Notes: a model not told the origin generated them from the sequence alone. DNA of 58,357 nt from Candidatus Omnitrophota bacterium (GCA_018902915.1 JAHIPS010000081.1:1-58357); one strand, 5' to 3'. Shown: positions 28,632-56,335, numbered from the stretch's first letter. Numbers and translations are program-made.

Positions 28632-28694
28632 GTCCGCTTACAGCGGACTTACTTGATCCCCCCTGTTTAGTTTTGTGAAGCAAAACTAGGGGGG
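28623..28694. repeat. two hairpins: a perfect 15-bp stem spanning the stop codon (28623-28657) and C6...G6 element copy E (28658-28694)
   Basis: ATCAAGTAAGTCCGC-ttaca-GCGGACTTACTTGAT, followed by CCCCCCTGTTTAGTTTTG-tgaag-CAAAACTAGGGGGG. Confidence 0.85.
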
Positions 28695-28710
28695 ATTAAT
28701 TTAATATATT

Positions 28711-29682
28711 ATGCAAAGACTTATTACTAAACAAGATTTGGTTAACAAGTTAACAGAGCTCTTGAAAGACTTCGAGGTCGTAGGGCCAAAAGAGCTCTCT
28801 AATAAAGGTATATTCTATCAGGTCATAGAGGATGCAAAGGAGTTATATCTGGGGCAAGATTTTGCAATAGAGCCGATAAAGAAATTCTTTTTAGAGCCGT
28901 CTTCCTGGATCCTAAGACACGCTAAGGACGATGTAAGCTTAGAAAGTTTTCCCCAGTCAGATAAAAAGAGAATAGTTATTGGAGCCCGGCCGTGCGAGGC
29001 AAAAGGGTTGGCATTATTGGATAAGCTGTTCGATTCCGAATACAAGGACGATTTTTATATAAATAACCGCAAGAGGACTATTGTTGTGGGCCTTGCCTGC
29101 GCTAAACCTGACATGAGCTGTTTTTGCACATCAATGCAGGGGTCGCCAGCAGAAACCTCTGGGATGGATGCGTTGATCTTTGAATCAGGCGATGGATTTA
29201 TCATAGAGCTGGTTACTGATAAGGCAAAGCATATTCTCGGCTCTATAGGAGAGGATATTAAAGAAGATCAGAAATTAAATAAAGACAAAATGAAAGCCCT
29301 GGTCAAGAAAGTGATAAAGACACCTGAAAGCCTGGACAAGGTCTTTGAGAGCGATTATTGGGACGAGGTCTCCAGGCCGTGTATAAGTTGCGGCGTGTGC
29401 ACATTTTTATGCCCGACCTGTCATTGCTTTGATCTGGTGGATGAAGAGAAAAAGAGGATGAGGTGTTATGACGGATGCAGCTTTCCGGATTTTACGCTCG
29501 AGGCGTCTGGCGTGAATCCCAGGCCTACAAAAAAGGAACGCTACAGGCAGAGGGTATTTCACAAATTCGATTATTTTAAGAAAAATTTTGGGGAAAATCT
29601 CTGTGTAGGCTGTGGGAGATGCATCAGGCATTGTCCGGTGAAAATCGATATAGCAGATATTGTGGATAAAGCGCCTATTTAA
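28711..29682 (+). CDS. Fe-S subunit (FlxB / AsrA / sulfhydrogenase-beta-like)
   Basis: CISCGVCTFLCPTCHC and CVGCGRCIRHCP. Paired with the following FAD/NAD subunit. Confidence 0.65.
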   Translation: MQRLITKQDLVNKLTELLKDFEVVGPKELSNKGIFYQVIEDAKELYLGQDFAIEPIKKFFLEPSSWILRHAKDDVSLESFPQSDKKRIVIGARPCEAKGLALLDKLFDSEYKDDFYINNRKRTIVVGLACAKPDMSCFCTSMQGSPAETSGMDALIFESGDGFIIELVTDKAKHILGSIGEDIKEDQKLNKDKMKALVKKVIKTPESLDKVFESDYWDEVSRPCISCGVCTFLCPTCHCFDLVDEEKKRMRCYDGCSFPDFTLEASGVNPRPTKKERYRQRVFHKFDYFKKNFGENLCVGCGRCIRHCPVKIDIADIVDKAPI

Positions 29683-29685
29683 AAG

Positions 29686-30510
29686 ATGAAAAATATTTAT
29701 TTACCTCATATAGCTGAAATAGTCGACGTAAAGCAGGAGACATCTGATATAAAGACGTTCACGCTCAGGTTCAAGGATAAGGCAGTTGGGAAGGCCTTTA
29801 CCTATAAACCAGGCCAGTTTGTGGAGTTCTCGATATTTGGCGAGGGTGAATCGCCTTTCTGCATCTCGAATTCGCCCACGAGAGATTCCATAGAATGCAG
29901 TGTCAAGAAAATGGGCAAGGTCACCCAGGTCTTGCATGAGATGGATATAGGCGATGAGGTAGGCATAAGAGGGCCTTACGGCAATGGCTTTCCCCTTGAT
30001 GAATTAAAAGGCAAGAATCTTTTATTTGTTGCCGGCGGAATAGGGCTCGCGCCCTTACGCTCCTTAATAAATTATTGTTTTGATAATAGAAAAGACTATA
30101 AGACTATTACTATCGTGAATGGCGCGCGCACGTCAAAAGACCTTGTCTATAAGGATGAATATAAGACATGGGAAAAGGCAAAGGATGCGCACCTACATTT
30201 AACTGTTGACTGCCAGGAGGATAACTGGACATGCATGGTAGGCGTGGTGCCAAAGATCCTGGAAGAGATAAAACCAACCTGTAAGGACAGCATAGCTATT
30301 GTCTGCGGCCCGCCAATAATGATAAAGTTCACGCTGCCTGTTCTTATGAGATTGGGTTTTTGCCCCGAGTCTATTCTTACTACGTTAGAGATGAAGATGA
30401 AATGCGGCCTGGGTAAATGCGGCAGATGTAATATCGGAAATCTATATATTTGCAAGGATGGACCTGTTTTTAGTTATGCTCAATTAAATGGTATGAACTA
30501 TGATCATTAA
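29686..30510 (+). CDS. FAD/NAD(P)H-binding [2Fe-2S] oxidoreductase subunit (FlxA / AsrB / PyrK-like)
   Basis: FNR-like fold (YKPGQFVEF, LLFVAGGIGLAPL) and C-terminal CGLGKCGRCNIG. Confidence 0.75.
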   Translation: MKNIYLPHIAEIVDVKQETSDIKTFTLRFKDKAVGKAFTYKPGQFVEFSIFGEGESPFCISNSPTRDSIECSVKKMGKVTQVLHEMDIGDEVGIRGPYGNGFPLDELKGKNLLFVAGGIGLAPLRSLINYCFDNRKDYKTITIVNGARTSKDLVYKDEYKTWEKAKDAHLHLTVDCQEDNWTCMVGVVPKILEEIKPTCKDSIAIVCGPPIMIKFTLPVLMRLGFCPESILTTLEMKMKCGLGKCGRCNIGNLYICKDGPVFSYAQLNGMNYDH

Positions 30511-31416
30511 GATTTGGTTAAAAGCCATAAGGGCGCCATTTTTTACCGCGACCATAATCCCGGTTACTCTGGGCTCAGTGATTGCCTGGCATGATACCAA
30601 TGATTTTATGTGGCTGAGATTCTGGCTTACGATGCTTGGTGTGCTGTTTGTGCACACAGGGACAAATCTAGCCAATGATTATTTTGACCATGTCTCTGGA
30701 TGCGATGAGGCAAATTCTACGCCTACGCCTTTTAGCGGAGGAAGCAGGGTGATCCAGAATGGACTTATTGCTCCCAGGAAGATTTTATATGTCTCCCTGG
30801 TCTCATTTATTATTGGCAGCGCAATCGGCCTTTATCTAAATCATTTGTGTAAAGGGAATATAATCCTCGTCTTAGGTATGATCGGTGTATCTTTAGGATT
30901 TTTTATAGCGTCAAGTCATTCCGTATAGGATACGGGGGCTTCGGAGAGATGGCAGTAGGGATTGGCTTTGGTCCGCTGATAGTATTGGGCTCATATTATG
31001 TACAAGCGCAGATTTTACCTTTCAGGATATTCCTGATATCAATCCCTGTCGGCATTTTAATTGCCCTGGTAGTATTCATAAACGAATTTCCAGATTACCT
31101 TGCTGATAAGTCAGCAGGGAAAAGGACTATCGTGGTCAGGCTGGGGAAGAAAAACGCCATGGTTTTATATCATATTCTGTTAGTTAGTGTATATGCGGCC
31201 ATAGTATTTTTAGTAATATTTAAATTTTTACCAGTAGCGTCTTTGATCGTTTTTTTAAGCCTTCCTTTAACTATAAAGGCATTCACAGTGTCCAGGAAAA
31301 ATTTTGACAAGGTTTACGAATTATTACCAGCAAATGCCTCGACTATAGGGCTGCATATGGCAATAGGTGCACTATTATCCATAGGCATAGCGTTAGACAG
31401 GATCTTATGCGCTTAA
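30500..31416 (+). pseudogene. menA: 1,4-dihydroxy-2-naphthoate polyprenyltransferase (UbiA family), split by a frameshift at a T6 run (30899-30904)
   Basis: ORF 30500-30928 gives WLKAIRAPFFTA...NLANDYFD. After the T6 run, the other frame reads YSVKSFRIGYGGFGEMAVGIGFGPL and continues into ORF 30949-31416. One extra T restores a single ORF. Confidence 0.75.
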
Positions 31417-32384
31417 AAGATATCTATAAACCGATCGAGAAAGAACTGATGGGCGTGGAAGACCTATTGAGAGACTCTCTTAATAGCACCACGAATAAAT
31501 CCATATCCCGGGTCTGCAATTATTTATTGGATGCGAAAGGCAAAAGACTCAGGCCGGCCCTGGTTCTGCTGTCAGGTAAGGCCACTAGCGACGCTGCTGT
31601 CGCGACCCCGATACTTATAAAGATCGCCTGCGGCATAGAGCTGATCCATGCTGCTTCTTTGGTCCATGATGATGTAATCGACCATTCCAATCTCCGTCAC
31701 AATAAACCCACGATTAATTTTAAATGGGGCCAGGATCTTTCTATTGCCCTTGGAGACTACCTTTATTCTGTGGCGTATGAATTGATCTCCCAGTGCAACA
31801 ATATAGATATCCTCCAGTGTATAAGTTCTGCCACAAAGGCAATGTGCGAGGGCGAGCTTGTTCAGGTCTCAGAAAGGGATAATCTGGACCTATTAAAGAG
31901 GAGGTACATCGTTATTGTAAAAAAGAAGACAGCCAGCCTTTTTGCCGCGAGCTGCCAGTCAGGCAGCCTGGTTTCTAAAAGCAAAAGATCTTTACAGGTT
32001 GCCATGAAGGCGTATGGCTTGAATTTTGGCATCGGGTTTCAGATAACAGATGATTATCTGGATATCGTGAGCGAGGAAAAGAGATTGGGCAAAAAACCAG
32101 GACAGGATATAAGCGTGGGAGAGATGACCTTACCCTTATTAAATCTATTAAAATCAGTACCGGCACATGAAAAAGAGAAATTTAAGACATTGGTTTCCAA
32201 GGGATCTTTGAATGCGGTGAAGACGAGGCTTATTCATTCCGGGGCAGCAGAAAAGACAAGACAAGAGGTTTCCTCATATATGGGGCTTGCGAAGAAGAGC
32301 TTGGATACTCTACCAGAAACAGTCTTTAAAAGAAGCCTGGTTAATTTAACAGATTTTATAATAGAGAGAAATTTTAACCTGTAA
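31407..32384 (+). CDS. long-chain polyprenyl diphosphate synthase
   Basis: LVHDDVIDHS and FQITDDYLD (two DDxxD motifs). Confidence 0.85.
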   Translation: MRLKDIYKPIEKELMGVEDLLRDSLNSTTNKSISRVCNYLLDAKGKRLRPALVLLSGKATSDAAVATPILIKIACGIELIHAASLVHDDVIDHSNLRHNKPTINFKWGQDLSIALGDYLYSVAYELISQCNNIDILQCISSATKAMCEGELVQVSERDNLDLLKRRYIVIVKKKTASLFAASCQSGSLVSKSKRSLQVAMKAYGLNFGIGFQITDDYLDIVSEEKRLGKKPGQDISVGEMTLPLLNLLKSVPAHEKEKFKTLVSKGSLNAVKTRLIHSGAAEKTRQEVSSYMGLAKKSLDTLPETVFKRSLVNLTDFIIERNFNL

Positions 32385-32405: not shown

Positions 32406-32804
32406 ATGAAGCTAGATTTGAAGTTAGCTGGCGTAGTTGTTTTGCTTGCCTTGGTTTTCAATGTTTGGACAAGCGAGGCATACGCTAGTTGTGGAGGATG
32501 TGGCGCAGGAGGAGAATCGGTAGATGCAGTGACAGAGGCCTTGCCTGTAAGTTTTAAGGCCGAGGTTATTTGTTTGGGTTGTGCTTTGAAAAAAGGGCAG
32601 GGTGCAAAGACGCAGTGTTCTCTGTACGGACATGTAAATGCACTTAAGAGTGAAGACGGCAGGATCTGGACGATATTGGAGAACGATGCATCTACAGGAC
32701 TTATTAATTCACATGAGTACGCGGGAAAACAGGTTGAGATCACAGGAAAAAAATTCGGCGGCACTCAGATAATAGAAATAGAAAATTTTAAACTTGTAGA
32801 ATAA
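32406..32804 (+). CDS. secreted Cys-rich small protein of unknown function
   Basis: Signal peptide ...WTSEAYA followed by SCGGCGAGG, CLGCALKKGQGAKTQCSLYGH, and a beta-rich C-terminal half. No family recognised. Confidence 0.6.
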   Translation: MKLDLKLAGVVVLLALVFNVWTSEAYASCGGCGAGGESVDAVTEALPVSFKAEVICLGCALKKGQGAKTQCSLYGHVNALKSEDGRIWTILENDASTGLINSHEYAGKQVEITGKKFGGTQIIEIENFKLVE

Positions 32805-32821: not shown

Positions 32822-34138
32822 ATGCGGTTTTTAAGAGTATGTTTGATTTTAATATTCAGTGCAGGAATTATTTTTACATCAGTGCCTGGTTTATATGCTG
32901 ATGAGACAAGCGAGATTATTTTAAAACTTCTTGTGAAAAAAGGCATAATCACCCAGGAAGACGTAGACGAGATAAAAAGCCAGGTGGTGAAAGAAAAATC
33001 ATTGGTACCTCAAGGAATAGAAGAGAGAGTAACATTACTTGAGGAGAAGTCAGAAGAAACAGGATTTCTTTCAGCGAAAGGTTATAAGATTGACGTAAAA
33101 GGCGGGGCAGAGATCGAATTTGTAAACATACAGGATGATGATGCGGGGGTAGCGCTAGATACTACAAGTAGCCCAGATGACTCTGAAAATCCTAGACTCC
33201 AGGTAGATAAAGTTACAATGAGATTTACTGTAACAGGGGAAGATGAGACAGTCGGATTTTCTACTGAGCTGGAAATGGATGAGGGAGATAAGGCCTTTTT
33301 TGACGATGCCTATATTTTTGTAAAAGATTTAGAATGGCTTCAGGCTGCTCACTCGTTTACAGTGGGTTTACAGAATAGGTTTATAGTGCCAAAGCAGATT
33401 TTCGAAAGCTATCCCTTGAATGGATTTGCTTGGTATGAGGACGAAGAATACATGGCACTCTATAAAGGTGAGCATGATGACTGGTTATACTGGTATGGCG
33501 AACTTGCCCGCGCAAATGAAATAGATGACAAGGCGCCAACAGAAAATGGTCAGTTTGAAATGATCCATGACAACAGGCGTACCAGTAATTCTGCAGAGAT
33601 AGGAAATAAATTTGCTGCTGGTGGTGGTCTTGGGCTCAAGCTTAAATTAAAAGATCTTGGGAAGGTTAATATCCTTGGATTTGGCCGTAGTGGAACATTA
33701 ACTGATGATGATGTTTCATTTATGCAGGGTTTAACTGGTTACTCTTCCTCAGAAACAAGCACTGATTATTTGAGGACAGGTGTAAATTTAGATTATAAGC
33801 ATAAAAATTGTGGGTTAAGAGGTCAGTTTATGTATGCAGAGGATGGAACTTTAGACAGAAAGGGTTGGTATATAGAGCCTTACTACAATATTCATGTTGG
33901 TTGGAGGTATTTGGATAGCATAACTCCAGCGGTACAGTTAAGCTGGTTGGATGTTGATCTTGCAAATACGACAGCTGATGCCAGAACTTGGGATCGCGAA
34001 AAGTACACACTTGGAGCAGTATTCAAGATTAACAAGAATCTTCAGTGGAAAAACGAGTACTCAATTAATGAAGAGGATACTGGCGGAGCAGAAGTTGATA
34101 ACAATGAATTTATTAGTCAGTTGAAATTTAGTTTCTAA
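32822..34138 (+). CDS. outer-membrane porin-like beta-barrel protein (phosphate-selective porin O/P-like)
   Basis: Signal peptide, an N-terminal helical segment (ILKLLVKKGIITQEDVDEIKSQV), alternating beta-strand pattern and the C-terminal motif ...QLKFSF. Confidence 0.6.
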   Translation: MRFLRVCLILIFSAGIIFTSVPGLYADETSEIILKLLVKKGIITQEDVDEIKSQVVKEKSLVPQGIEERVTLLEEKSEETGFLSAKGYKIDVKGGAEIEFVNIQDDDAGVALDTTSSPDDSENPRLQVDKVTMRFTVTGEDETVGFSTELEMDEGDKAFFDDAYIFVKDLEWLQAAHSFTVGLQNRFIVPKQIFESYPLNGFAWYEDEEYMALYKGEHDDWLYWYGELARANEIDDKAPTENGQFEMIHDNRRTSNSAEIGNKFAAGGGLGLKLKLKDLGKVNILGFGRSGTLTDDDVSFMQGLTGYSSSETSTDYLRTGVNLDYKHKNCGLRGQFMYAEDGTLDRKGWYIEPYYNIHVGWRYLDSITPAVQLSWLDVDLANTTADARTWDREKYTLGAVFKINKNLQWKNEYSINEEDTGGAEVDNNEFISQLKFSF

Positions 34139-34165
34139 GAGGTAATGGAAAAAAAGTTAAATGTA

Positions 34166-34200
34166 TCAAGGTAGGCAAGGCTTGGCCTTGCCTACCTTGA
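34166..34200. repeat. perfect 16-bp stem / 3-nt loop hairpin containing GTAGG
   Basis: TCAAGGTAGGCAAGGC-ttg-GCCTTGCCTACCTTGA, between the porin gene and the NrfD-type gene. Confidence 0.8.
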
Positions 34201-34269
34201 AGAGAAGGATGAGTTAAAAAATAGACTCGACTTGTAAAATGGTGGTAAATAAGAAAGGGGGCGGGTACA

Positions 34270-35118
34270 TTGACTGAATATAAAATTTTTACACATCTTT
34301 CATATGACTGGATGATTGTCAGCTATTTTTTTCTTGGTGGTTTAGCTGCTGGCGCGTACTTTTTTTCAGTAGCGGCAAATTATTGGATAAAGGAGTTTAA
34401 GTCACTGGCAAAGACAGCAGCGATTTTGACTCCTATAGCGCTTGCCATTGGACTGGCATTTCTCCTGCTTGATCTAGGACAGCCATTTAGGTCCTGGCGA
34501 ATTTTCCTGCATTTCAATCCTACCTCGGCTATTTCATATGGCATCTGGTTTTTAAATATTTTCTTCATCCTGAGTTTGGTCTATGCGTGGTTTACCTCAA
34601 GAGGTGAAAACGAGAAGGCAAAAAAGTTTGCCTATCTTGGCTTGCCTTTTGGTTTATTAGTAGCTATATATACAGGCGTACTTTTGGCTCAGGCGCCGGG
34701 CAAGGCATTGTGGCATTCTGCGCTTTTGCCAGTACTATTTCTTATAGGAGGAGTAATTTCCGGCATTGCATTGGTGATGCTGGTTTCTTCAGGCGCAGCA
34801 GAAAAAGCAGTTTCGGTTAAAGTCGGTAGACTTCTCGTCGGGCTTCTTTTAGTTGAATTAGGACTGATTTTAACGGAACTTATTATTCTTGCTAATGGAG
34901 ACGCTGAGGCCATAATGACAGTCAAAGTGATTTTGACAGGCCAGTATAGTTTTTTGTTCTGGATAGTAGAGATCCTCCTTGGAGCCATAATACCGATATT
35001 TATTCTTTTTAAGACTGAGGTATCCTCCAGGGCTCAAGCAGTGGCTGCAATGCTTATTTTAGTGGGGATATTTGCGATGCGTTTTATTATAGTAGTCGGT
35101 GGGCAGATTGTTAGTTAA
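34270..35118 (+). CDS. NrfD/PsrC-type quinol-interacting membrane subunit
   Basis: 282 aa with about 8 TM helices. N-terminal W..VSYFFLGGLAAGAYF is typical of NrfD family. TTG start. Confidence 0.8.
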   Translation: MTEYKIFTHLSYDWMIVSYFFLGGLAAGAYFFSVAANYWIKEFKSLAKTAAILTPIALAIGLAFLLLDLGQPFRSWRIFLHFNPTSAISYGIWFLNIFFILSLVYAWFTSRGENEKAKKFAYLGLPFGLLVAIYTGVLLAQAPGKALWHSALLPVLFLIGGVISGIALVMLVSSGAAEKAVSVKVGRLLVGLLLVELGLILTELIILANGDAEAIMTVKVILTGQYSFLFWIVEILLGAIIPIFILFKTEVSSRAQAVAAMLILVGIFAMRFIIVVGGQIVS

Positions 35119-35136
35119 AAAGTGAGAGGTGAACCA

Positions 35137-36018
35137 ATGGCAAAGGCTCATAATGATAAGAAGACGTTAGTTGTAGAGAAAGGGATTACCCGCCGGCAGT
35201 TTTTTAAGTTGGGGGGAGCTGGCGTAGCAGCTGCGGCTGTTAGTATGATTGCCGGTGAAGTCTCTGCTTCAGAAAGTTCGTTAAAGGGTAAAAGGCTCGC
35301 TATGGTGATCGACCTTCAGGGGTGCACTGGATGTGGTGGATGCATGATATCCTGTAAGAACGAGAACAATGTACAGGAAGGCGTTGCCTGGTCCTATAAA
35401 AAAAGCAGCACTACTGGTACATTTCCTAACGTAAGATATGAATATATTCCTACGTTGTGTAATCATTGTGAGAAGGCGCCGTGCGTTAGGGCTTGTCCTA
35501 CAGGGGCTATGCAAAAGATAGATGGCGACATAACCATGCATGATCCAGAGAAATGCATAGGTTGCAAGACTTGTATTGCCATGTGCCCGTATGGAGTGAT
35601 CTCCCGTAACTCAAAAAGGACTCACGGGTTCTGGAGAAAAGACAAGGCCTTGATAAAGGGTTGCACTGAATCGCCTAAAGAGGTCGTGAAAAAGGTCAAA
35701 GGAACAGTCGTTCCTTATTATAATCCGGATAGAGAAAAAAATATTAAGGGATCAGGTTTAAGATATAAAGGTATTGTGGAGAAGTGCACTTTCTGTGACC
35801 ACAGGGTAAAAAGAGGAAAATTGCCATACTGTGTCTTGAGGTGCCCGGCGCAGGCGAGGATATTCGGAGACCTGAATGATACTAAGAGTAAGGTGAATGA
35901 GATCCTTGGAAAGTACAAGCCGATGAGACTCAAGGAACATCTTGGAACAGAACCCAAAGTGTTTTATGTAAGAGACTATAATCCCGGTAATTATAAAAGA
36001 AGTTATGGAAGTATCTAG
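35137..36018 (+). CDS. 4x[4Fe-4S] electron-transfer subunit with its own twin-arginine signal
   Basis: ITRRQFFKLGGAGVAAAA; CTGCGGCMISC, CNHCEKAPCVRACP, CIGCKTCIAMCP and CTFCDHR...CVLRCP. Confidence 0.85.
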   Translation: MAKAHNDKKTLVVEKGITRRQFFKLGGAGVAAAAVSMIAGEVSASESSLKGKRLAMVIDLQGCTGCGGCMISCKNENNVQEGVAWSYKKSSTTGTFPNVRYEYIPTLCNHCEKAPCVRACPTGAMQKIDGDITMHDPEKCIGCKTCIAMCPYGVISRNSKRTHGFWRKDKALIKGCTESPKEVVKKVKGTVVPYYNPDREKNIKGSGLRYKGIVEKCTFCDHRVKRGKLPYCVLRCPAQARIFGDLNDTKSKVNEILGKYKPMRLKEHLGTEPKVFYVRDYNPGNYKRSYGSI

Positions 36019-36038
36019 GTAAAAAAGGAGGACGAGAG

Positions 36039-38630
36039 ATGGACACGAAGAATAGTAAAATGACCCGTAGAGATTTCGTAAAAAGCGCTGTGCTTACAGG
36101 CGCAGCTGTCGCAGTCGGCTCTAATCTTAAACCGGCATTAAGGGCTTTTGCGGCAACAGCTGAGCCCCCATTTACTGAATCCGGGAAATGGAAACCAACT
36201 ACATGTCAGGGGTGTACTTCCTGGTGTTCTGTGCAGGCGTATGTAGTGGATGGAAGGGCTATAAAGGTAAGAGGCAACCCGAATTCCAAGGTAAATGGAA
36301 AGGCTGGTTGTCCCCGCTCGCATATGTCTCTCCAGCAGGTCTATGACCCTGACAGGATCAAGGTCCCGATGAAGAGGACCAATCCTAAAAAAGGTAAAAA
36401 TGAGGATCCTGGATTTGTCCCTATATCATGGGATGAGGCGCTTAATACGATTGCTGACAAGATAATGGAGCTCAGGAACGCCGACGAGACATATAAATAT
36501 ATGCTTATGAGAGGCAGATATTCATATATGCGGGACATACTCTATGATCGCATGACCAAGATCATAGGTTCTCCCAATAATATCTCCCACAGCGCAATCT
36601 GCGCCGAGGCAGAAAAATTTGGACCTTATTATACAGAAGGATTATGGGATTATAGGCAATACGATATTAAAAACACCAGATATGTAATTTTGTGGGGAGC
36701 TGATCCTATTTCAGCCAACAGGCAGGTTTCCTATTATCTGAGTGAATGGGGCGATATGCTTGACAGGGCGCAGGTAGCTGTCATAGATCCGAGATTGTCT
36801 GCTACTGCTACTAAGGCGGATGAATGGTTGCCTATTAAGCCTGGTCAAGACGGGGCATTGGCTTCTGCAATGGCTCATGTAATTCTGACTGAGGGCCTGT
36901 GGTACAAGGACTTTGTCGGAGATTTTGATGTAAACTCTCCTGTAAAAAAGTTTGAGAAGGACAAGACAATACCAGAAGAATTTGCTTCTACCCAGTCTGA
37001 CGGCAGCACGTTAAATTCACAAACTTTCAAGGAAAAATACACGCATGGCCTTATTAAGTGGTGGAATATAGAGCTTTATGATAAAACACCGGAGTGGGCA
37101 GAAAAGAGGACTGGCATAACGGCTGATCAAATAAGAAGAGTAGCGATAGGATACGGAAAAGCAGCGCCGCATGCTATTTGCTGGGTCGGTGGCGGTCCGG
37201 TTATGCAGGTCAGAGGCGGGTATACTAGCATGGCTGCGCATGCCTTAAATGGACTTGTTGGTTCAGTGGATAATGTAGGCGGGACACTCCAGGCCAATAA
37301 AGAGTATACGAAAGCATTTCCAAAACCAGATGACTTCATGGATGATATAGCAAAGGAAGGCAAAAAGCATAAGAAGATAGACCATAGAGGGAGAAAGGAA
37401 TTCCCGAGCCTTAAGAAAGGAAAACCAGGTTCAGCGGTTGTTACCAACAGGGCAGCGGATGGGATATTGAACGAAGACCCTAGTGAAATAAAGGTTGCGA
37501 TAGGCTACATGAATAACTTTGCATTTTCATGTCCTGGCTCAGAAAGATGGGAAAAGGCCTTGAGTAAGATCCCTTTTCTCGTCCATATTACCACGCATGC
37601 AGCAGAATTTACGTGGTTTTCTGATATAGCGCTGCCTTCCACTCATCATATGTTCGAGAAATGGGGATGGGTGAAGTCACACGGTAATGGATATCGCCAC
37701 GTTACTCTGCTACAGCCAGTGAATGATAGAGTGTGGGATGTGAAGACAGACGAAACCGAGATACCATGGCTTATAGCTGAAAAGCTTGCGCAAAGAGGAT
37801 TTGATAACTTATTGCGCCACTACAAGGAATACAAGGATCCGGAAACTGGTAAGGCGCCTACCAATGAAAAAGAGTTTGCCCTTTACGCGCTTAAATATGC
37901 CACTGAGAAACTCTGGGATCCTTCTAAATATGAAGGCGGAGATAAGTTAAGCGGCTGGCAGGAACTTGTAGAAAAGGGCGTTTGGAATTCAGACCCTTAC
38001 CCCTATAAAAAGAGATGGGGAAAGATGAAGACCAAGACCGAGAAGTTCGAGTTTTATAGCGAGACACTAAAAGAGGCCCTGACCGCGCACGCAGAAAAAC
38101 ATAATACCAGCACAGATGATATACTTTCTACTTGTAACTACCAGGCCAGGGGTGAGAAGGCATTTGTTCCACACTACGAGGAGCCGGTTACGTGGGGCAG
38201 CAAAAAAGAATATCCGTTTGTTCTGGTTGATTACAAGTCCAGGCTTAACAGGGAAGGCAGGTCTGCTAATTGTTCGTGGTATCAGGAATTTAAGGATATT
38301 GACCCTGGGGATGAGGCATGGAATGACGTGGCCAAGATAAATCCTGTGGATGCAAAGGCATTAGGGATAAGGGATGGCGCCAGGATCAAGTTGACATCCA
38401 AGATAGGAGAGATCGAGTGCACCGCGAAGTTATGGGAAGGTGCGCGCCCCGGAACCATTGCAAAGTGTTATGGACAGGGGCACTGGGCTTATGGTAAGCT
38501 GGCAGCTAAGAGGTTTGGTAAAGTGCCCAGAGGAGGAAACAATAATCAAATAATCCCTGCTGATTACGATCGCCTGAGCGGTTCCACAGCGTTTTATGGA
38601 TTGGCAAGGATTAAGGTCAGTAGGGCATAG
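36039..38630 (+). CDS. Tat-exported Mo-bisPGD catalytic subunit, ArrA/ArxA-like by motif spacing (Psr/Phs/Ttr superfamily)
   Basis: MTRRDFVKSAVLTGAAVAVG; C56-x2-C59-x3-C63-x27-C91; RGRY at 158-161; H184-S185-x2-C188-x4-K193. 863 aa. The Mo-bisPGD family assignment is high confidence; the Arr/Arx subtype is moderate. Confidence 0.7.
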   Translation: MDTKNSKMTRRDFVKSAVLTGAAVAVGSNLKPALRAFAATAEPPFTESGKWKPTTCQGCTSWCSVQAYVVDGRAIKVRGNPNSKVNGKAGCPRSHMSLQQVYDPDRIKVPMKRTNPKKGKNEDPGFVPISWDEALNTIADKIMELRNADETYKYMLMRGRYSYMRDILYDRMTKIIGSPNNISHSAICAEAEKFGPYYTEGLWDYRQYDIKNTRYVILWGADPISANRQVSYYLSEWGDMLDRAQVAVIDPRLSATATKADEWLPIKPGQDGALASAMAHVILTEGLWYKDFVGDFDVNSPVKKFEKDKTIPEEFASTQSDGSTLNSQTFKEKYTHGLIKWWNIELYDKTPEWAEKRTGITADQIRRVAIGYGKAAPHAICWVGGGPVMQVRGGYTSMAAHALNGLVGSVDNVGGTLQANKEYTKAFPKPDDFMDDIAKEGKKHKKIDHRGRKEFPSLKKGKPGSAVVTNRAADGILNEDPSEIKVAIGYMNNFAFSCPGSERWEKALSKIPFLVHITTHAAEFTWFSDIALPSTHHMFEKWGWVKSHGNGYRHVTLLQPVNDRVWDVKTDETEIPWLIAEKLAQRGFDNLLRHYKEYKDPETGKAPTNEKEFALYALKYATEKLWDPSKYEGGDKLSGWQELVEKGVWNSDPYPYKKRWGKMKTKTEKFEFYSETLKEALTAHAEKHNTSTDDILSTCNYQARGEKAFVPHYEEPVTWGSKKEYPFVLVDYKSRLNREGRSANCSWYQEFKDIDPGDEAWNDVAKINPVDAKALGIRDGARIKLTSKIGEIECTAKLWEGARPGTIAKCYGQGHWAYGKLAAKRFGKVPRGGNNNQIIPADYDRLSGSTAFYGLARIKVSRA

Positions 38631-38643
38631 AGACGGGAGCTAG

Positions 38644-39240
38644 TTGAAAACAGAAGAAACTTTACTACATGAAAATGCTCGCGCTGAGCAGTACAAGTTT
38701 CTATCGGAATGTTATCATGCACCTGATGAGAAACTGATAGAGATGCTGTGCTCAAGGAAGGATTCTGTTCAGGACTTGCTTAAAAACATTCCGACTATTG
38801 ATGATCTCGAGCAATTAAAAATTGAATACTCAAGGCTTTTTCTTGGGCCATTTAAAGTCCTTGTGCCACCCTATGGTTCTGTGTATCTTGAACATGAGAG
38901 AAGGGTCATGGGTGAATCAACCATAGATGTGAAGAGGTGGTATGAGAAGGAAAAGCTCGATATATTGATTAGAGAGGTCCCGGATCACATAGCCATAGAA
39001 TTGGAGTTTATGTATCTCCTTGTTTTTAAGCAAATAGAGGCAACCAAAGACTCTGATTCTGTCGGTGCCTGGAATTATCAGAAAAAACAGGCTTCTTTTT
39101 TGAATACCCATCTGGGAAAGTGGGCCCCTGAATTTTCTGAAAAGTTGGAGGCAAGCGCCAGAAACGGGTTTTACAAAAATTTAGCCCGGTACACGAGATT
39201 ATTTGTCGAAGAAGACGCAAAAGGCCTATCGACCTTATAG
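38644..39240 (+). CDS. TorD/DmsD-family molybdoenzyme chaperone
   Basis: TTG start. YSRLFLGPFKVLVPPYGSVYLE and PDHIAIELEFMYLL are typical of TorD-like proteins. Confidence 0.75.
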   Translation: MKTEETLLHENARAEQYKFLSECYHAPDEKLIEMLCSRKDSVQDLLKNIPTIDDLEQLKIEYSRLFLGPFKVLVPPYGSVYLEHERRVMGESTIDVKRWYEKEKLDILIREVPDHIAIELEFMYLLVFKQIEATKDSDSVGAWNYQKKQASFLNTHLGKWAPEFSEKLEASARNGFYKNLARYTRLFVEEDAKGLSTL

Positions 39241-39267
39241 TGCTGATTGAAGAAGGGGGTGGATCGA

Positions 39268-39666
39268 ATGAGCAATAAGTCAAAGATCCTGATTATCGAC
39301 GACGATCCGGATATTTCAGAGGCGATGAAGGTAGTTCTGGAGAGTAAGCAATATCAGGTCGCTACTGCCAAGACCGGGGAACAGGGCCTGAAAAAAGTAA
39401 AACAGGAAAAGCCGGATCTTGTCATACTGGACGTCATGATGGAAACACAGGGCAAGGGTTTTGACGTCGCAAGGGCTATTAAAGGAGACGAAGATACCAA
39501 AGACACTCCTATCCTTATGCTCACAGCTGTCAAAGAAAAGACAGGATTGGATTTCAAGAAAGAGGCAGGCGATGATGCCTGGCTTCCAGTTGACGCTTAT
39601 CTTGACAAACCGCTCAAACCCGAAGAATTGATTTCAAAGGTCGGACTGCTTTTAGGAAAGAGTTAG
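39268..39666 (+). CDS. single-domain (CheY-like) response regulator
   Basis: KILIIDDDPD...DLVILDVMM...PILMLTA...K. ATG 39268 has an upstream GGGGGTGG RBS. Confidence 0.85.
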   Translation: MSNKSKILIIDDDPDISEAMKVVLESKQYQVATAKTGEQGLKKVKQEKPDLVILDVMMETQGKGFDVARAIKGDEDTKDTPILMLTAVKEKTGLDFKKEAGDDAWLPVDAYLDKPLKPEELISKVGLLLGKS

Positions 39667-39679
39667 AATATAAGATGTT

Positions 39680-40993
39680 ATGGAGAGCTTGAATTCGCGT
39701 GAGGGTCTCTTTGAAAGGATCCATTGGCTCATTAAGCTGCGATGGATAGCTGTTACAGGGGTCTTTCTGTCTGTATTCATAGCAGTTAATGTACTCAAGA
39801 TTCCTGTTCCAGATATACCTTTATATGCTATAGCGCTTATACTCGGGATATATAATCTCACATCCCTTGTCTATGTAAACAGGTCAAGGGCGAATTTTCC
39901 CGCACTAGCCAACAGGATCGCCAATACGCAGATAGCCATTGATCTTTTTATCCTTGCCAGCCTCGTGCATTTTTCCGGAGGCATAGAGAATCCTTTTATA
40001 TTTTATTTTATCTTTCATATGATCATCGCGAGCATACTTCTTTCGCGGCGCGCATCTTTCCTACAGGCCACGTTCGCGGTCATATTGTTTTCCATGATGG
40101 TGGCCTTAGAGTATCTTGGGATCTTGCCACATTATTGTTTAGTTGGGTTTGTTTCCTCTGATCTCCACAACAATGCTATTCACATTAGCGGCATAGCCTT
40201 TGTTTTTGTTTCTACCTTGTATATAGCAGTGTATATGGCCACGTCTATTTCAAGGAGATTAAGAGAACGCGAGGCAAGTTTAAAAGAGGCAAACGCACTT
40301 TTAAAGCAGAAGGACAGAATAAAAAGCGAGTATGTCTTAAGAGTTACACATGATATAAAGGAACACCTGGCAGCGATCCAGAGCTGTATCGAGCCGGTAA
40401 CAGGCGGCATAGTGGGTTCACTCAATGAAAAACAAATGAACCTGCTCCAGAGGGCTGATGAACGCGCGGGAAAACTCATGTTTTTTGTAAAGGCACTATT
40501 AGAGGTCACGAGCATAAAATTGAGTAAAGAGATCCGCATGGGACATTTTGATTTTAGCGACATGCTGAAAGACGCCATCCATACTATTGCGCGCAAGGCA
40601 GGAAACAAAAACATATTCCTCAGCTCCACTGTGGAACCTGGCATACAGAAGATACGTGGGGCCAGGGAATATATACAGGAACTTATCTCAAACCTTTTGG
40701 CAAATTCCGTGAAATACACGCCCCGCAATGGAAAGGTAGATATCGATGTTATTGATAAAGGCAATTCTATTCTTATACAGATTAAGGACACCGGCATAGG
40801 AATACCTGGGGAGGAGCTATCAAAGGTATTTGACGAGTTTTACAGGGCATCCAATGCCAGGGAAATCGAAAAAGACGGCACAGGTCTGGGGCTTTCAATA
40901 GCAAAGCAGGTGGTGGCTAGGCACAATGGAAAGATCTGGGTAGAGTCAGTCCAGGGCAAAGGCACCACGTTCTTTATAATGTTACCTAAATAG
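39680..40993 (+). CDS. polytopic sensor histidine kinase
   Basis: About 6 N-terminal TM helices, H-box [11 protein letters not shown]-box [17 protein letters not shown] and GTGLGLSIA. Confidence 0.85.
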
Positions 40994-41009: not shown

Positions 41010-41186
41010 ATGTTTAAGTTTGGAATGGGTGAGCTTGTTGTAATTTTATTGATCGTGCTTCTTTTATTTGGCGCGTCAAGGCTGCCTGAGATAGCACGTT
41101 CATTGGCTAAATCAGTCAAGGAATTCAAAAAGGCGGGGAAAGAGCTAAAGGGCGACATAGAAGACGTTACAAAAGACGAAACATGA
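41010..41186 (+). CDS. tatA: twin-arginine translocase TatA/E
   Basis: 58 aa (below the ORF-track cutoff). [42 protein letters not shown] is the canonical TatA pattern. GGAGGG RBS. Confidence 0.85.
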
Positions 41187-41187
41187 T

Positions 41188-41883
41188 ATGGATGAACGGC
41201 TCACACTAGTAGAACATCTGGACGAGGTCAGGACAAGACTCCTGAAGTCAGTCGTGTTCGTGATCATTATATCGTGTGTGCTTTATAGCATCATAGACGT
41301 GCTTATCCCTATGCTTGCCAGGCCTGTTAAGCGGCTCATATTCATAGCGCCGCAAGAGGCATTCGTAGTAAATATTAAAATAGCTTTTATGGGAGGACTT
41401 TTTTTTTCTTCGCCGTATCTTCTATACCATATCTGGGAATTTGTCTCAGTGGGCCTGGAGAAAAAGGAAAGGAGATACGTCCTCATATTCGGACTATTGT
41501 CTTTTGTGCTTTTTATATCGGGGTGTGGCTTCGGGTATTTCGTAATCTTACCTATTGCCATAAAGTTTCTCCTGGGGTTTGCGACGGATGTCATAAGCCC
41601 CATGATAACAGTGAGCAACTACGTCTCTTTTGTCGGGACTATAATCTTTGCCTTTAGTCTCGTGTTCCAGCTGCCTCTAATAATGCTTTTTCTCACAAAG
41701 ATCAATATAGTTACGCCTGTGTTTCTGTCAAAGAAAAGAAGACATGCAATAGTCGCCATGTTTGTAGTGGCAGCGATTCTAACGCCGCCAGACGTAATCA
41801 CCCAGCTTTTAATGGCAGGACCGCTACTGATTTTATACGAAATCGGTATTATGTTTTCCAAATGGGCATATAGGCCAGCATGA
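41188..41883 (+). CDS. tatC: twin-arginine translocase TatC
   Basis: LTLVEHLDEVRTRL..., 6 TM helices, and ...LTPPDVITQ. Confidence 0.9.
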   Translation: MDERLTLVEHLDEVRTRLLKSVVFVIIISCVLYSIIDVLIPMLARPVKRLIFIAPQEAFVVNIKIAFMGGLFFSSPYLLYHIWEFVSVGLEKKERRYVLIFGLLSFVLFISGCGFGYFVILPIAIKFLLGFATDVISPMITVSNYVSFVGTIIFAFSLVFQLPLIMLFLTKINIVTPVFLSKKRRHAIVAMFVVAAILTPPDVITQLLMAGPLLILYEIGIMFSKWAYRPA

Positions 41884-43115
41884 TAAAAGTCAAAGATGCA
41901 CTGAAGATAATATTGAGTAGTATAAAACCGCTAGGAAACGAGAAGGTCAGGCTCCTGGATGGCCTGGATAGGGTGTTGGCTGATGATATTCATGCAAACT
42001 GCAATTTGCCGCCATTTGATAATTCTGCAATGGACGGGTATGCAGTTAGGGCAAAGGATACTAAAGGCGCCTCTGGAATCCGTCCAAAGATCTTAAAGGT
42101 AATAGAGGATGTAGCCGCAGGTTATACAGCAAAAAACAAGGTTTGTGATAATCAGGCCATAAGAATAATGACAGGCGCGCCAGTTCCAAATGGGGCTGAC
42201 AGCGTGATTATGGTGGAGTTTACAAAAAAAGATAAAAATCTAGTCGAGATATTTAAGCAGACTAAAAAAGGGGAGAATATTCGTAGAGCTGGTGAGGATG
42301 TAAAGAAAAAGCAAAAGGTTTTATCCAAAGGCACTATCTTGAGGCCGCAGGAAATAGGCATGCTCGCTTCACTCGGCATAGCCAGGATAAATGTGGCAAA
42401 AAGGCCAAGGGTTGGGATACTGGCTACAGGAGATGAGCTGGTGGGGGTGGAAGAGAGATTAACAAAAGGTAAGATCAGGAATAGTAATACCTATATAGTC
42501 CATGGCCAGATACTAAAGTGTGGGGCCACACCAGTTGATTTAGGCATTGCAAGGGACTACAGGACAAAGGTAAGGAAAAAAATCGAGGCAGGTTTCGCCA
42601 AACGTCTGGATATGCTCCTGGTCATAGGAGGGATTTCTGTTGGCGATTATGATTTAGTAAAGGATGTCTTATTGGACATGGGAATGAAGATGAAATTTTG
42701 GAAGGTTTGCCAGAGGCCGGGAAAACCCCTGGCATTTGGGATTATAAGAGGTATCCCTGTGTTTGGCCTGCCAGGTAATCCCGTATCCTCCACAATAAGC
42801 TTTGAGGAATTTGTCAGGCCCTCGCTACTAAAGATGCAGGGTTCAAAGAATCTGTTCAGGCCAGGCGTTTGGGCGATCCTGACTCAGGATTTTCAGAAGA
42901 AAAAAGACCTCAGGTATTTTATCCGTGCGAGGCTTAAAAATATAGATGGAAAGTTTTACGCCTCGATTACCGGGCCGCAGGGTTCAGGTATTATAAATTC
43001 GCTTGTTTTAGCTGACGGCATAATAGTGGCACCTGAAGAAAAGACGTTTCTTAAAAAAGGACATAAGGTATATGTCCAGCTTTTAAGGCATGGATTTGAC
43101 GGAGGCGCGATTTGA
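41880..43115 (+). CDS. moeA: molybdopterin molybdenumtransferase
   Basis: PPFDNSAMDGYAV, IMTGAPVP, TGDEL and LPGNPVSS. Confidence 0.9.
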   Translation: MIKVKDALKIILSSIKPLGNEKVRLLDGLDRVLADDIHANCNLPPFDNSAMDGYAVRAKDTKGASGIRPKILKVIEDVAAGYTAKNKVCDNQAIRIMTGAPVPNGADSVIMVEFTKKDKNLVEIFKQTKKGENIRRAGEDVKKKQKVLSKGTILRPQEIGMLASLGIARINVAKRPRVGILATGDELVGVEERLTKGKIRNSNTYIVHGQILKCGATPVDLGIARDYRTKVRKKIEAGFAKRLDMLLVIGGISVGDYDLVKDVLLDMGMKMKFWKVCQRPGKPLAFGIIRGIPVFGLPGNPVSSTISFEEFVRPSLLKMQGSKNLFRPGVWAILTQDFQKKKDLRYFIRARLKNIDGKFYASITGPQGSGIINSLVLADGIIVAPEEKTFLKKGHKVYVQLLRHGFDGGAI

Positions 43116-43690
43116 ATCCGGCTACTGGAATAATATTGGCAGGCGGCAAAAGCACTCGCATGAAAACTGACAAGGCGTTTTTAAAACTCGGCCCAAAGAC
43201 AATGATCGAAGAACTTGTTTCAAAGTTGGAGAAAAAATTTTCAAAACTCATGATTATCGCCAATGATAAAGAAAGATACTCGAGGTTTGACATGCAGGTC
43301 ATAGAGGATATTATACCTGATAAAGGGCCGTTAGGCGGCATATACACTGGTCTCGTTAAATCAGATAGCTTTTATAATTTCATCTTTAGCTGCGACGCGC
43401 CTTTTGTAAATCCTGATTTAATAGATTATATGATCAGTAAAGCAAAAGACTTTGATATAGTAGTGCCTAAATGGCAAGATCGATTCGAACCACTTCATGC
43501 TATTTATTCGAAGGACTGCATAGAAGCAATTGAGAGCCAGCTAGGAAAGAATGAATTGAAAGTAACGAATTGCCTCCAATATGTTAAAGTCAGGGTGATA
43601 AACGAGAAAGAGATCTCTCGATTTGTCTCCAGCCAGCCTTTCTTCGCTAATATAAATACACCTCAGGATCTTTATATGTTGTCACAGTAG
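43112..43690 (+). CDS. mobA: molybdenum cofactor guanylyltransferase
   Basis: GIILAGGKSTRM, GPLGGIYTG and FSCDAPF. TTG start overlaps the moeA stop. Confidence 0.85.
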   Translation: MNPATGIILAGGKSTRMKTDKAFLKLGPKTMIEELVSKLEKKFSKLMIIANDKERYSRFDMQVIEDIIPDKGPLGGIYTGLVKSDSFYNFIFSCDAPFVNPDLIDYMISKAKDFDIVVPKWQDRFEPLHAIYSKDCIEAIESQLGKNELKVTNCLQYVKVRVINEKEISRFVSSQPFFANINTPQDLYMLSQ

Positions 43691-43771: not shown

Positions 43772-44215
43772 ATGGGGAATTTTTTAAGCGCTATTTTATC
43801 ATCCTATGAGGGAAAAGAGGATGAATTAATACCTATTTTACAGCAGGTTCAGGAGAAACTTGGTTATCTCCCTGAAGAGGCCATGCTTGAGATAGCCAAA
43901 TTTACTGGTGTATCGGAAAGTAAGATATATGGCGTGGCGTCGTTTTATGCGCAGTTTCGCTTTACACCGGTAGGCAAGAACAAAGTCACGGTATGTCGTG
44001 GGACTGCCTGCTATGTTCGTGGTGCGCCACGGATCCTGGAAGAAGTAGAAAGACGTTTAGGTATCCGGGATGGAGAGACTACAAAAGACCTGGAATACAC
44101 CATCGATACTGTGGCGTGTATTGGTTGCTGCGCACTATCTCCTTGCATGATGATCAATAAAGAGGTACATATCAAGTTAACCCCACCGAAGATAGACAAG
44201 ATCTTCTCCAAATAA
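43772..44215 (+). CDS. NuoE-like [2Fe-2S] subunit
   Basis: VCRGTAC...CIGCCALSP thioredoxin-like ferredoxin motif. Confidence 0.85.
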   Translation: MGNFLSAILSSYEGKEDELIPILQQVQEKLGYLPEEAMLEIAKFTGVSESKIYGVASFYAQFRFTPVGKNKVTVCRGTACYVRGAPRILEEVERRLGIRDGETTKDLEYTIDTVACIGCCALSPCMMINKEVHIKLTPPKIDKIFSK

Positions 44216-44226
44216 GGTAATAGCTT

Positions 44227-46215: not shown

Positions 46216-46219
46216 AATA

Positions 46220-46245
46220 GTAGGCCAGGTTTAAACCTGGCCTAC
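46220..46245. repeat. perfect 26-nt palindrome GTAGGCCAGGTTTAAACCTGGCCTAC
   Basis: Read directly. It lies between the NuoF-like stop and the fdhA start. Confidence 0.85.
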
Positions 46246-46249
46246 GGTG

Positions 46250-54889: not shown

Positions 54890-54898
54890 GGGGCATCA

Positions 54899-56334: not shown

Positions 56335-56335
56335 A

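Follow-up and report, generated by a model that had tools for sequence, protein, structure and literature searches.

Does the four-gene cluster at positions 34270–39240 of a contig from a Candidatus Omnitrophota bacterium (GCA_018902915.1, JAHIPS010000081.1:1-58357) encode a respiratory arsenate reductase, and what does its unusual gene order represent? The whole stretch of 58,357 nucleotides (nt), referred to below as the window, was analysed to address both questions. Judged from its sequence, the 863-amino-acid (aa) protein of the cluster is clearly the catalytic subunit of a respiratory arsenate reductase of the ArrA family, and the cluster very probably encodes a functional respiratory arsenate reductase complex. 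The layout is arrC-arrB-arrA-arrD, with B before A and a twin-arginine translocation (Tat) signal on ArrB. The genes, and the sites within arrA that carry the argument, are as follows:

34270–35118, plus strand: arrC, NrfD-like membrane anchor, 282 aa, TTG start with a Shine-Dalgarno-like GGGGG upstream
35122–36018, plus strand: arrB, subunit with four [4Fe-4S] clusters, 298 aa, arginine pair of the Tat signal at nt 35191–35196
36039–38630, plus strand: arrA, catalytic subunit with molybdenum-bis(pyranopterin guanine dinucleotide) (Mo-bisPGD), 863 aa, with Molybdop_Fe4S4, Molybdopterin and Molydop_binding domains
36066–36071, plus strand: arrA, arginine pair of the Tat signal
36204–36311, plus strand: arrA, Fe-S cysteine motif
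36510–36521, plus strand: arrA, RGRY motif, R158-G-R-Y161
36588–36617, plus strand: arrA, H184, S185, C188 and K193
36651–36653, plus strand: arrA, Y205
38644–39240, plus strand: arrD, TorD/NarJ-family chaperone for Tat proofreading and cofactor insertion, 198 aa, Pfam Nitrate_red_del (E 7e-30), NCBIfam TorD/DmsD-type

The N-terminus of ArrA, T-R10-R11-D-F-V-K followed by a hydrophobic stretch and AFA-A, represents a Tat signal, and residues 1–46 were disordered in the AlphaFold2 model. When ArrA was compared by phmmer with all Protein Data Bank (PDB) sequences, the best match was 6cz7_A (ArrA from Shewanella sp. ANA-3), at E = 0 and 1098 bits and with residues 46–862 aligned to 11–813, and the second best was Thermus PsrA, at 152 bits. 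BLASTP gave 56.4% identity to ANA-3 ArrA over 821 aa. The AlphaFold2 model, built on 26 homologues (predicted local distance difference test, pLDDT, 85.8; predicted template modelling score, pTM, 0.87), matched 6cz7 with template modelling (TM) scores of TMq 0.91 and TMt 0.97 and a root-mean-square deviation of 2.2 Å, while PsrA came second at TM 0.70. Among NCBIfam profiles the ArrA equivalog ranked first with 1265 bits, followed by PhsA with 242 bits, and TtrA reached 61 bits. The ArrA match was full length (residues 8–862 against positions 3–847 of 848) and lay more than 1000 bits above the next family.

The residues of the active site led to the same assignment. Regular-expression checks found the Fe-S motif C56-x2-C59-x3-C63-x27-C91 as well as H184-S-x2-C188-x4-K193. 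For ANA-3 ArrA, PMC10654088 lists Cys61/64/68/96 as the Fe-S cysteines and Tyr166, His189, Ser190, Lys198 and Tyr210 as substrate contacts. Chain numbering in 6cz7 equals native ANA-3 numbering minus 40, and the alignment of ArrA with 6cz7 chain A was gapless across the pocket region. The four cysteines corresponded to Cys56/59/63/91, the five contacts to Tyr161, His184, Ser185, Lys193 and Tyr205, all of them identical, and the Mo-ligand Cys193 to C188. Among 26 ArrA-clade proteins that were 41–85% identical, R158, G159, R160, Y161, H184, S185 and C188 were invariant, and K193 and Y205 were at least 90% conserved. As the phmmer match was full length with E = 0 and 1098 bits, the agreement of the motifs reflected homology and not chance. 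The original prediction for this locus had placed the four open reading frames (ORFs) and all of these motifs at the positions listed above, and ORF translation and pattern checks reproduced them. Its offset of 5 residues from ANA-3 numbering held once the 40-residue correction was applied, its assignment to the ArrA/ArxA-type Mo-bisPGD enzymes agreed with the 6cz7 match, the NCBIfam ranking and the structural model, and in the pocket alignment that it had named as a test, RGRY and HS..C....K did align with the pocket residues of ArrA. The enzyme is thus an additional member of the ArrA family, and its chemistry is itself not new.

The separation of ArrA from its sister group ArxA was addressed by phylogeny, motif and gene context. 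Homologues were collected by searching 1.84 billion cluster representatives exhaustively with HMMER, and 128 full-length sequences were aligned; the tree was built from these representatives by neighbour joining with 100 bootstraps, and ANA-3 was its sole named ArrA reference. ANA-3 ArrA, the ArrA of the window and all 20 loci from GTDB fell into one clade with 100% bootstrap support. The original prediction had also named branching inside the Psr, Phs, Ttr or Srr clades as a test; ArrA did not branch with Psr, Phs or Ttr, in agreement with the low PhsA, TtrA and PsrA scores given above. A separate clade of P0157 and three other proteins (99% bootstrap) was about 35% identical to ArrA and was recognised as Arx by motif and gene context. 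According to PMC6549141, which cites Glasser 2018, ArxA has XGRGWG where ArrA has (R/K)GRY; at the aligned position, P0157 has FGRGWGP and ArrA has MRGRYSY, without XGRGWG. Both (R/K)GRY and SHSxxCAEAEK were common to ArrA, ANA-3 ArrA, the 20 GTDB relatives and the nearest representatives. The P0157 locus (L028) begins with a divergent gene for a Phosphonate-bd-type sensor (arxX), followed by arxB2 (ferredoxin), arxA, arxB, arxC (NrfD-type, 381 aa) and arxD; its contig is 7.9 kb long, and arxS/arxR lie beyond its ends. It is a typical arx cluster. The window contains neither an arxB2 ferredoxin gene nor an arxXSR-type sensor gene.

These results indicated that the catalytic subunit is of ArrA type by its sequence features, not ArxA, and that the complex is most likely a menaquinol:arsenate oxidoreductase working as a reductase. 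The ArrA-type protein, together with the adjoining menaquinone genes, makes arsenate reduction the favoured direction. Low-potential menaquinol suits arsenate reduction and not arsenite oxidation; menaquinol potential and arsenate reduction were discussed by Duval 2008. Physiologically, the complex could instead be an Arx-like anaerobic arsenite oxidase that passes electrons from arsenite into the quinone pool, in keeping with the Fe-S motif and cysteine ligand common to the sister groups and with the arxABCD gene order seen in some relatives of the cluster. Richey et al. are also reported to have described in 2009 that Arr runs in both directions in vitro. Such an oxidase is nevertheless very improbable here, given RGRY in place of XGRGWG, about 35% identity to the Arx clade against 56% to ANA-3 ArrA, a cluster with neither arxB2 nor a gene for an arxX-type phosphonate-binding sensor, and neighbouring quinone genes for menaquinone, whose low potential would make the oxidation of arsenite unfavourable at neutral pH. 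The original prediction had regarded the direction of catalysis as undecidable from sequence. That view stood for the physiological direction, which the reported reversibility places beyond proof by sequence; the choice between ArrA-type and ArxA was largely decided by RGRY and clade membership.

A second alternative to arsenate reduction would make the enzyme a member of the ArrA clade with another real substrate, an oxyanion or chalcogen compound such as selenate or selenite, antimonate, thiosulfate or polysulfide. Substrate shifts are common in the family of dimethyl sulfoxide (DMSO) reductase, and relatives of ArrA were abundant in settings not noted for arsenic, several close ones coming from marine sediment and low-arsenic settings. 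The scaffold does diversify: in P0128 and P0130, which form a sister clade 44% identical to ArrA, KGRS(T/A) replaces (R/K)GRY and THD or NHD replaces SHS before the cysteine ligand, and with the loss of the arsenate-contacting tyrosine these proteins may have a different substrate. For ArrA itself another substrate is improbable: all nine compared pocket, ligand or motif residues were identical to those of ANA-3 ArrA, the protein lay inside, not beside, the clade that holds the characterised enzyme, and ACR3, arsF-like and arsG-like genes occurred on the same contig.

The reported reversibility and the low-arsenic settings of relatives weigh against arsenate respiration as the role of the cluster, and so do several further points. 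ArrA, at 1265 bits, scored below the NF041714 equivalog cutoff of 1600, and ArrB, at 292 bits, below its cutoff of 450; the 1600-bit value is a threshold set for annotation and describes no biological property. The neighbour-joining tree of cluster representatives had a single named ArrA reference, and the evidence consists of homology, motifs, a fold model, phylogenetic position, signal peptides and synteny, so that catalysis is read from sequence. Finally, menA, upstream of the cluster, is frameshifted, which, if real, would mean that menaquinone synthesis is broken beside a menaquinol-dependent reductase. The genes concerned are:

30500–30928 and 30949–31416, plus strand: menA, split by a frameshift, the halves matching positions 11–134 and 151–296 of the NCBIfam MenA profile
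31407–32384, plus strand: long-chain polyprenyl diphosphate synthase (menaquinone side chain), NCBIfam HepT/solanesyl/octaprenyl synthase, E down to 3e-67

Against L025, whose MenA is intact at 306 aa, the T6 run of menA at 30899–30904 lacked one T, and an extra T restored GFFYSVKSF..., which suggested that the frameshift is probably a homopolymer sequencing error. A lesion immediately upstream would also fit a cluster that is a decaying, non-functional remnant or an assembly chimera. Such an origin is extremely improbable, as the lesion affects just one base of a homopolymer, typical of sequencing error, and as the four arr ORFs, tatAC, moeA and mobA were intact and each 64–88% identical to its counterpart in L017 and L025, where the order is the same. 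The same contig was also recovered in the Logan assembly of SRR11548473. L025 and L017 belong to one metagenome-assembled genome (MAG; GCA_964445715.1) whose contigs abut within arrB; they repeat the order of the window, beginning with the HdrA-like genes and ending with mobA, their ArrA is 88% identical, and this synteny points to a conserved island.

The partner proteins were consistent with an arsenate reductase complex. In ArrB, 16 cysteines fall into four groups of ferredoxin type, and Pfam recognised a TAT_signal at residues 22–40. The protein matched 6cz7_B with an E of 5.5e-79 over residues 58–287 and scored best against the NCBIfam ArrB family; its true start is probably the ATG at 35137. 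Across the cluster proteins, the TtrA, TtrB and TtrC families of NCBIfam scored far below the ArrA and ArrB families. ArrC matched Pfam NrfD (PF03916) with an E of 5e-41 and 141.8 bits against a cutoff of 25.8, and its approximately eight hydrophobic segments fitted the NrfD core of eight transmembrane helices (8-TMH), which consists of two bundles of four. Single-sequence phmmer of ArrC against the PDB gave no match, so a profile search was needed, and the ArrC profile matched ActC (8k9e_C) and PsrC (2vpw_C). ArrC was 54–80% identical to the ArrC of L001, L003, L020, L024 and L025. The NrfD anchor, Tat-signal Fe-S subunit and TorD-like chaperone that had been read from the sequence beforehand were all borne out by the Pfam, NCBIfam and 6cz7_B matches.

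The arrangement of these genes differed from what has been published. According to Duval 2008, arr clusters are arrAB or arrCAB with a Tat signal on A only, and within each clade of the enzyme family gene order and Tat-signal placement are conserved; the arx order is arxB2ABCD (PMC6549141). The window cluster has neither A before B nor a signal-less B, and a full-text literature search found no description of the C-B-A-D order. Loci of relatives were fetched from GTDB genomes and assemblies, and two layouts emerged. B precedes A in the window (also L021), L001, L002, L003, L017/L025, L019, L020, L022, L023 and L024, which come from Omnitrophota, Planctomycetota (Planctomycetia, Phycisphaerales) and Dehalococcoidia MAGs; all are C-B-A-D except one locus that reads cytochrome-porin-B-A-D. 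The other layout, A-B-C-D, occurs in L004–L016, from Anaerolineae, Desulfobacteria and relatives, and one Pseudomonadota MAG, with ArrA 66–75% and ArrB approximately 60% identical to the proteins of the window. The earlier description of the gene order as unusual therefore held against the literature and failed among the closest uncultured relatives, where the order is common; C-B-A-D marks a sub-lineage and is not a single case.

Other traits accompanied the gene order. ArrB carried a twin-arginine Tat signal in each of the eight B-before-A loci with a visible ArrB N-terminus and lacked a signal in all 13 A-B-C-D loci, where it starts at the Fe-S core ("MPRYAM..."), as in Shewanella. While the family comprises roughly 3000 homologues, this correlation of order and signal rests on 8 + 13 loci. 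The Tat-ArrB proteins formed one clade (91%; ArrB tree, 300 bootstraps), and the core B-before-A ArrA clade had 96% support in the neighbour-joining tree. ArrA of the Dehalococcoidia locus L019, however, clustered with that of A-B-C-D Chloroflexi, so that the ArrA tree does not bear out the single origin of the C-B-A-D order that the ArrB clade would suggest. Where the contig covers the stretch, arrD directly follows arrA in B-before-A loci and arrC in A-B-C-D loci. The window and the five B-before-A loci nearest to it have a short, 8-helix ArrC, while ArrC of the A-B-C-D loci was 366–383 aa long, of 10-TMH type and approximately 21–23% identical to the short form; the "ArrC" of Calisto and Pereira 2021 is likewise the 10-TMH type. 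The short form aligned to residues 48–328 of the long form (hhalign probability 99.1%), which indicated that the long form has one additional helix per end. Taken together, B before A, Tat signals on both subunits, a short anchor, and genes for a porin and a small protein make the cluster an architectural variant that is undescribed in the searched literature.

One relative showed a further arrangement. In L022 (4062–7913; Omnitrophica, ArrA 79% identical), no NrfD gene was found, and genes for a 466-aa multihaem cytochrome c and a Porin_5 protein directly precede Tat-arrB, arrA and arrD. By analogy, this recalls a CymA-like alternative link to the quinone pool within the same enzyme clade.

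Upstream of arrC lie two genes for secreted proteins, which the original prediction had noticed as extra to the complex, and a spacer with a strong hairpin:

32406–32804, plus strand: sec132, Cys-rich secreted protein of small size, possible lipoprotein, without a Pfam or NCBIfam family
32822–34138, plus strand: omp438, outer-membrane porin of 16-strand type, helical at its N-terminus, AlphaFold2 pLDDT 78, pTM 0.71
34166–34200, plus strand: hairpin with a perfect 16-bp stem and 3-nt loop, between the porin gene and arrC

Neither omp438 nor sec132 gave a significant match in Pfam or NCBIfam, even at E up to 10, and omp438 was identified by structure prediction: Foldseek matched its model to OmpU, OmpC, OprO, OprP and OmpM1 with probability 1.0 and TMq 0.48–0.56. 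Its N-terminal stretch of approximately 80 aa is common to Omnitrophota proteins that match Pfam Porin_5/Porin_O_P. A porin gene was found upstream of arr in L001, L022, L023, L024 (with an SLH domain) and L025, and all five diderm loci that were read far enough upstream had one; in relatives it is often followed by a gene for a 213–225-aa protein, which the window lacks. Phosphate selectivity was considered, as OprO and OprP were among the best TM-scores, and was set aside, as general porins scored equally; any such selectivity is hypothetical.

The sec132 protein has a signal peptide ending in a lipobox-like ...AYAS-C and the motifs CGGCG and CLGC-x10-C-x3-H. Its family comprises 19 proteins, of which the named ones are all from Omnitrophota, and the gene lies between the polyprenyl synthase and porin genes in three Omnitrophota loci (the window, L025 and L027). 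An arsenic- or metal-binding role would be speculation. In L026 (7574–9299), an Omnitrophota-type contig, a sec132 homologue lies away from arr, flanked by an Rrf2 regulator gene on one side and PAPS reductase/PHO4 genes on the other, so sec132 may not be arr-specific; the same genes also occur at 8363–10054 of the window.

The 131-nt spacer between omp438 and arrC (34139–34269) is dominated by the hairpin (-36.7 kcal/mol, z = -5.2), and none of 200 shuffles folded as well. No U-tract follows the hairpin at 34166–34200, and the terminator scan therefore did not flag it; a long palindrome also follows the porin gene of L025 but is a different one. Across the window, that scan found 17 terminators against 9.6 expected, a sigma-70 promoter scan was at chance (26 found, 26 expected), and Rfam searches gave neither a Moco riboswitch nor any further RNA family; there were no tRNAs.

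The remaining neighbours of the cluster include putative regulators, export and cofactor genes, and an arsenite exporter:

39247–39666, plus strand: receiver-only response regulator, Pfam Response_reg
39680–40993, plus strand: 6TM-PilS-type histidine kinase, Pfam HATPase_c and 6TM_PilS
41010–41186, plus strand: tatA
41188–41883, plus strand: tatC
41880–43115, plus strand: moeA
43112–43690, plus strand: mobA
54899–55975, plus strand: ACR3, TIGR00832, 404 bits (cutoff 283), approximately 16 kb downstream of the cluster

The response regulator and histidine kinase genes directly follow arrD in L017, and in L002 a response regulator gene directly follows arrD with a histidine kinase-like match approximately 6 kb further downstream; the pair is a possible, putative regulator of the cluster. 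Genes tatA, tatC, moeA and mobA also occur after arrD in L017, L022 and L023, and in L022, L025 and L027 the polyprenyl synthase gene is located as it is in the window. The full island thus reads HdrA2-like/MvhD/ferredoxin/FAD-NAD genes (FAD, flavin adenine dinucleotide; NAD, nicotinamide adenine dinucleotide), menA, polyprenyl synthase, sec132, porin, arrCBAD, response regulator and histidine kinase, tatAC, moeA and mobA. The neighbourhood foreseen from the sequence was recovered throughout: menaquinone genes upstream (menA and the polyprenyl synthase gene), tatAC/moeA/mobA at 41010–43690 downstream, and ACR3, which had been put at 15 kb.

Several blocks further out were observed in their own right. 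At 25392–30510 lie genes for an HdrA2-like flavoprotein, MvhD/FlpD, ferredoxins, a Fer4_22 protein and an FAD/NAD DHODB-type oxidoreductase; an HdrA2-like block also adjoins arr in unrelated MAGs (L025 451–6056, L024 11261–17583, L023 16168–18028), and it may be an electron-input or bifurcating module tied to arsenate respiration. At 43772–48964, NuoE-like and NuoF-like genes accompany a 905-aa FdhA (TIGR01591, 871 bits, above cutoff) and represent an NAD-linked formate dehydrogenase, which makes formate a candidate electron donor. These genes stand between mobA and the moaA, moaC, MOSC and MoaB-like genes found further downstream in the window, giving the region the look of a "molybdoenzyme island". 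At 53781–55975, arsF-like (NF040494), arsG-like (NF040495) and ACR3 (TIGR00832) genes stand in a row, all above curated cutoffs; the arsF and arsG families take their names from the detoxification of aromatic arsenicals, a function that would not be expected in an uncultured bacterium of sediment type. Beyond them, at 56050–57589, a candidate gene for a 94-aa CsoR/RcnR-like repressor, recognised by eye, precedes a Pfam OEP efflux gene and resembles the start of a metal efflux operon. The first 20 kb carry genes for sulfur assimilation and tetrapyrrole synthesis as well as anaerobe markers (desulfoferrodoxin, ferritin, FeoB, Fur), and the best named relatives of ArrA, sec132 and omp438 come from Candidatus Omnitrophica/Omnitrophota MAGs, whose bin labels make an Omnitrophota bacterium the probable source. 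All credible genes of the window (1–58357) are on the plus strand, and each 2-kb bin shows positive GC skew; a co-directional stretch of such length is unusual.

The gene arrA serves as the standard marker wherever the mobilisation of arsenic by microbes is studied in aquifers and sediments. Our findings suggested that a well-conserved ArrA lineage reaches Omnitrophota, Planctomycetota and Dehalococcoidia, groups that a cold-seep survey did not list among its arrA hosts (PMC10060404). A compendium of Omnitrophota does not mention arsenic (PMC10066038), and none of the papers found by literature search that mention both Omnitrophota and arrA linked the two. Named close homologues (P0002–P0120) are annotated as "molybdopterin-dependent oxidoreductase" or "anaerobic selenocysteine-containing dehydrogenase". 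With the equivalog cutoff of the Prokaryotic Genome Annotation Pipeline (PGAP) at 1600 bits, relatives are under-annotated, and surveys based on such cutoffs will undercount arsenate respirers. The tight link between gene order and the Tat signal of ArrB takes further the view of Duval et al. in which clades of this enzyme family are marked by gene order and by where the signal sits, and it offers a natural experiment on two-subunit Tat substrates, in which one subunit either hitch-hikes or has its own signal. The locus could therefore be useful for arsenic-cycling surveys, Tat targeting and operon evolution, while ordinary arsenate respiration is the chemistry to be expected.

It is conceivable, if rather unlikely, that the B-before-A/Tat-ArrB lineage represents a functionally distinct module of arsenate respiration, permanently membrane-bound, channel-fed and encoded on a self-contained island. 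Beyond its gene order and Tat-ArrB, this lineage has a dedicated porin in its diderm members, a short 8-TMH ArrC in most and, in the Omnitrophota loci, the Cys-rich secreted protein. If so, a substrate-selective outer-membrane channel would feed the complex, with a periplasmic accessory protein that possibly binds arsenic. An island with its own genes for the menaquinone tail, Tat export and Mo cofactor would then let Omnitrophota with small genomes, and other uncultured phyla, respire trace arsenate in sediment.

By analogy with ArrAB (6cz7) and PsrABC (2vpw), from which the substrate, direction, quinol donor, role of the porin and action as a single functional unit were drawn, ArrCBA would be a membrane-anchored, periplasm-facing menaquinol:arsenate oxidoreductase with ArrD as its maturation chaperone. 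The cofactor-free, 8-helix ArrC would bind and oxidise menaquinol, and electrons would cross ArrB by way of its four [4Fe-4S] clusters, reach the [4Fe-4S] cluster of ArrA and continue to Mo-bisPGD. There, arsenate would be held by the Arg and Tyr of RGRY, His184, Ser185, Lys193 and Tyr205 beside the Mo-ligand Cys188, and reduced to arsenite. ArrA and ArrB, each with its twin-arginine signal, would be exported folded via TatAC, with ArrD proofreading cofactor insertion and MoeA, MobA and MoaA/C/B making the Mo cofactor. The upstream porin probably admits arsenate across the outer membrane, and ACR3 would expel arsenite that enters the cytoplasm. As quinol oxidation and arsenate reduction would both face the periplasm, the complex itself is not expected to build a proton gradient; the proton-gradient argument for such complexes was discussed in Duval 2008, and possible ion translocation by NrfD-like subunits was reviewed in Calisto and Pereira 2021.

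Compared with known systems, the cluster was closest in its catalytic subunit to Shewanella ANA-3 ArrAB (6cz7), with which it has in common the ArrA fold, the Fe-S cysteines, the Mo-ligand cysteine, RGRY, the pocket residues and a collinear ArrB core with four [4Fe-4S] clusters. In Shewanella, however, arrA is followed by arrB without a membrane subunit, and ArrB starts at the Fe-S core without a Tat signal, whereas the window has C-B-A-D with an NrfD-type anchor and a Tat signal on ArrB. The quinol oxidase of Shewanella is the tetrahaem CymA, according to PMC2762525 and Duval 2008. The arrCAB/arrABC(D) clusters known from further arsenate respirers and the A-B-C-D clusters of Desulfobacterota and Anaerolineae MAGs (L004–L016) have the same set of Mo subunit, four-[4Fe-4S] subunit, NrfD-like anchor and TorD-like chaperone, but the A-B-C-D clusters combine a signal-less ArrB with a 10-TMH ArrC where the window has Tat-ArrB and an 8-TMH ArrC. 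Arx systems, such as that of Alkalilimnicola ehrlichii, resemble the cluster in the Fe-S motif, Cys Mo ligand, Tat export and NrfD-type and TorD-type partners, and differ in XGRGWG, arxB2 and a divergent arxX, where the window cluster has RGRY and none of those genes.

Two Tat signals within one complex would have a precedent in tetrathionate reductase, as Hinsley and Berks are said to have described in 2002 that both TtrA and TtrB carry them. In TtrBCA the gene for the Fe-S subunit also precedes that for the Mo subunit (Duval 2008), in the order B-C-A and not C-B-A as here. The PsrABC complex of Thermus thermophilus (2vpw), encoded in the order ABC (Duval 2008), has a catalytic subunit only 21% identical to ArrA (TM 0.70) and without the arsenate pocket motif. 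It nevertheless places periplasmic Mo-bisPGD and four-[4Fe-4S] subunits on an 8-TMH, NrfD-like anchor that binds menaquinol, and by this analogy it is the best structural template for how ArrC, ArrB and ArrA may be wired together.

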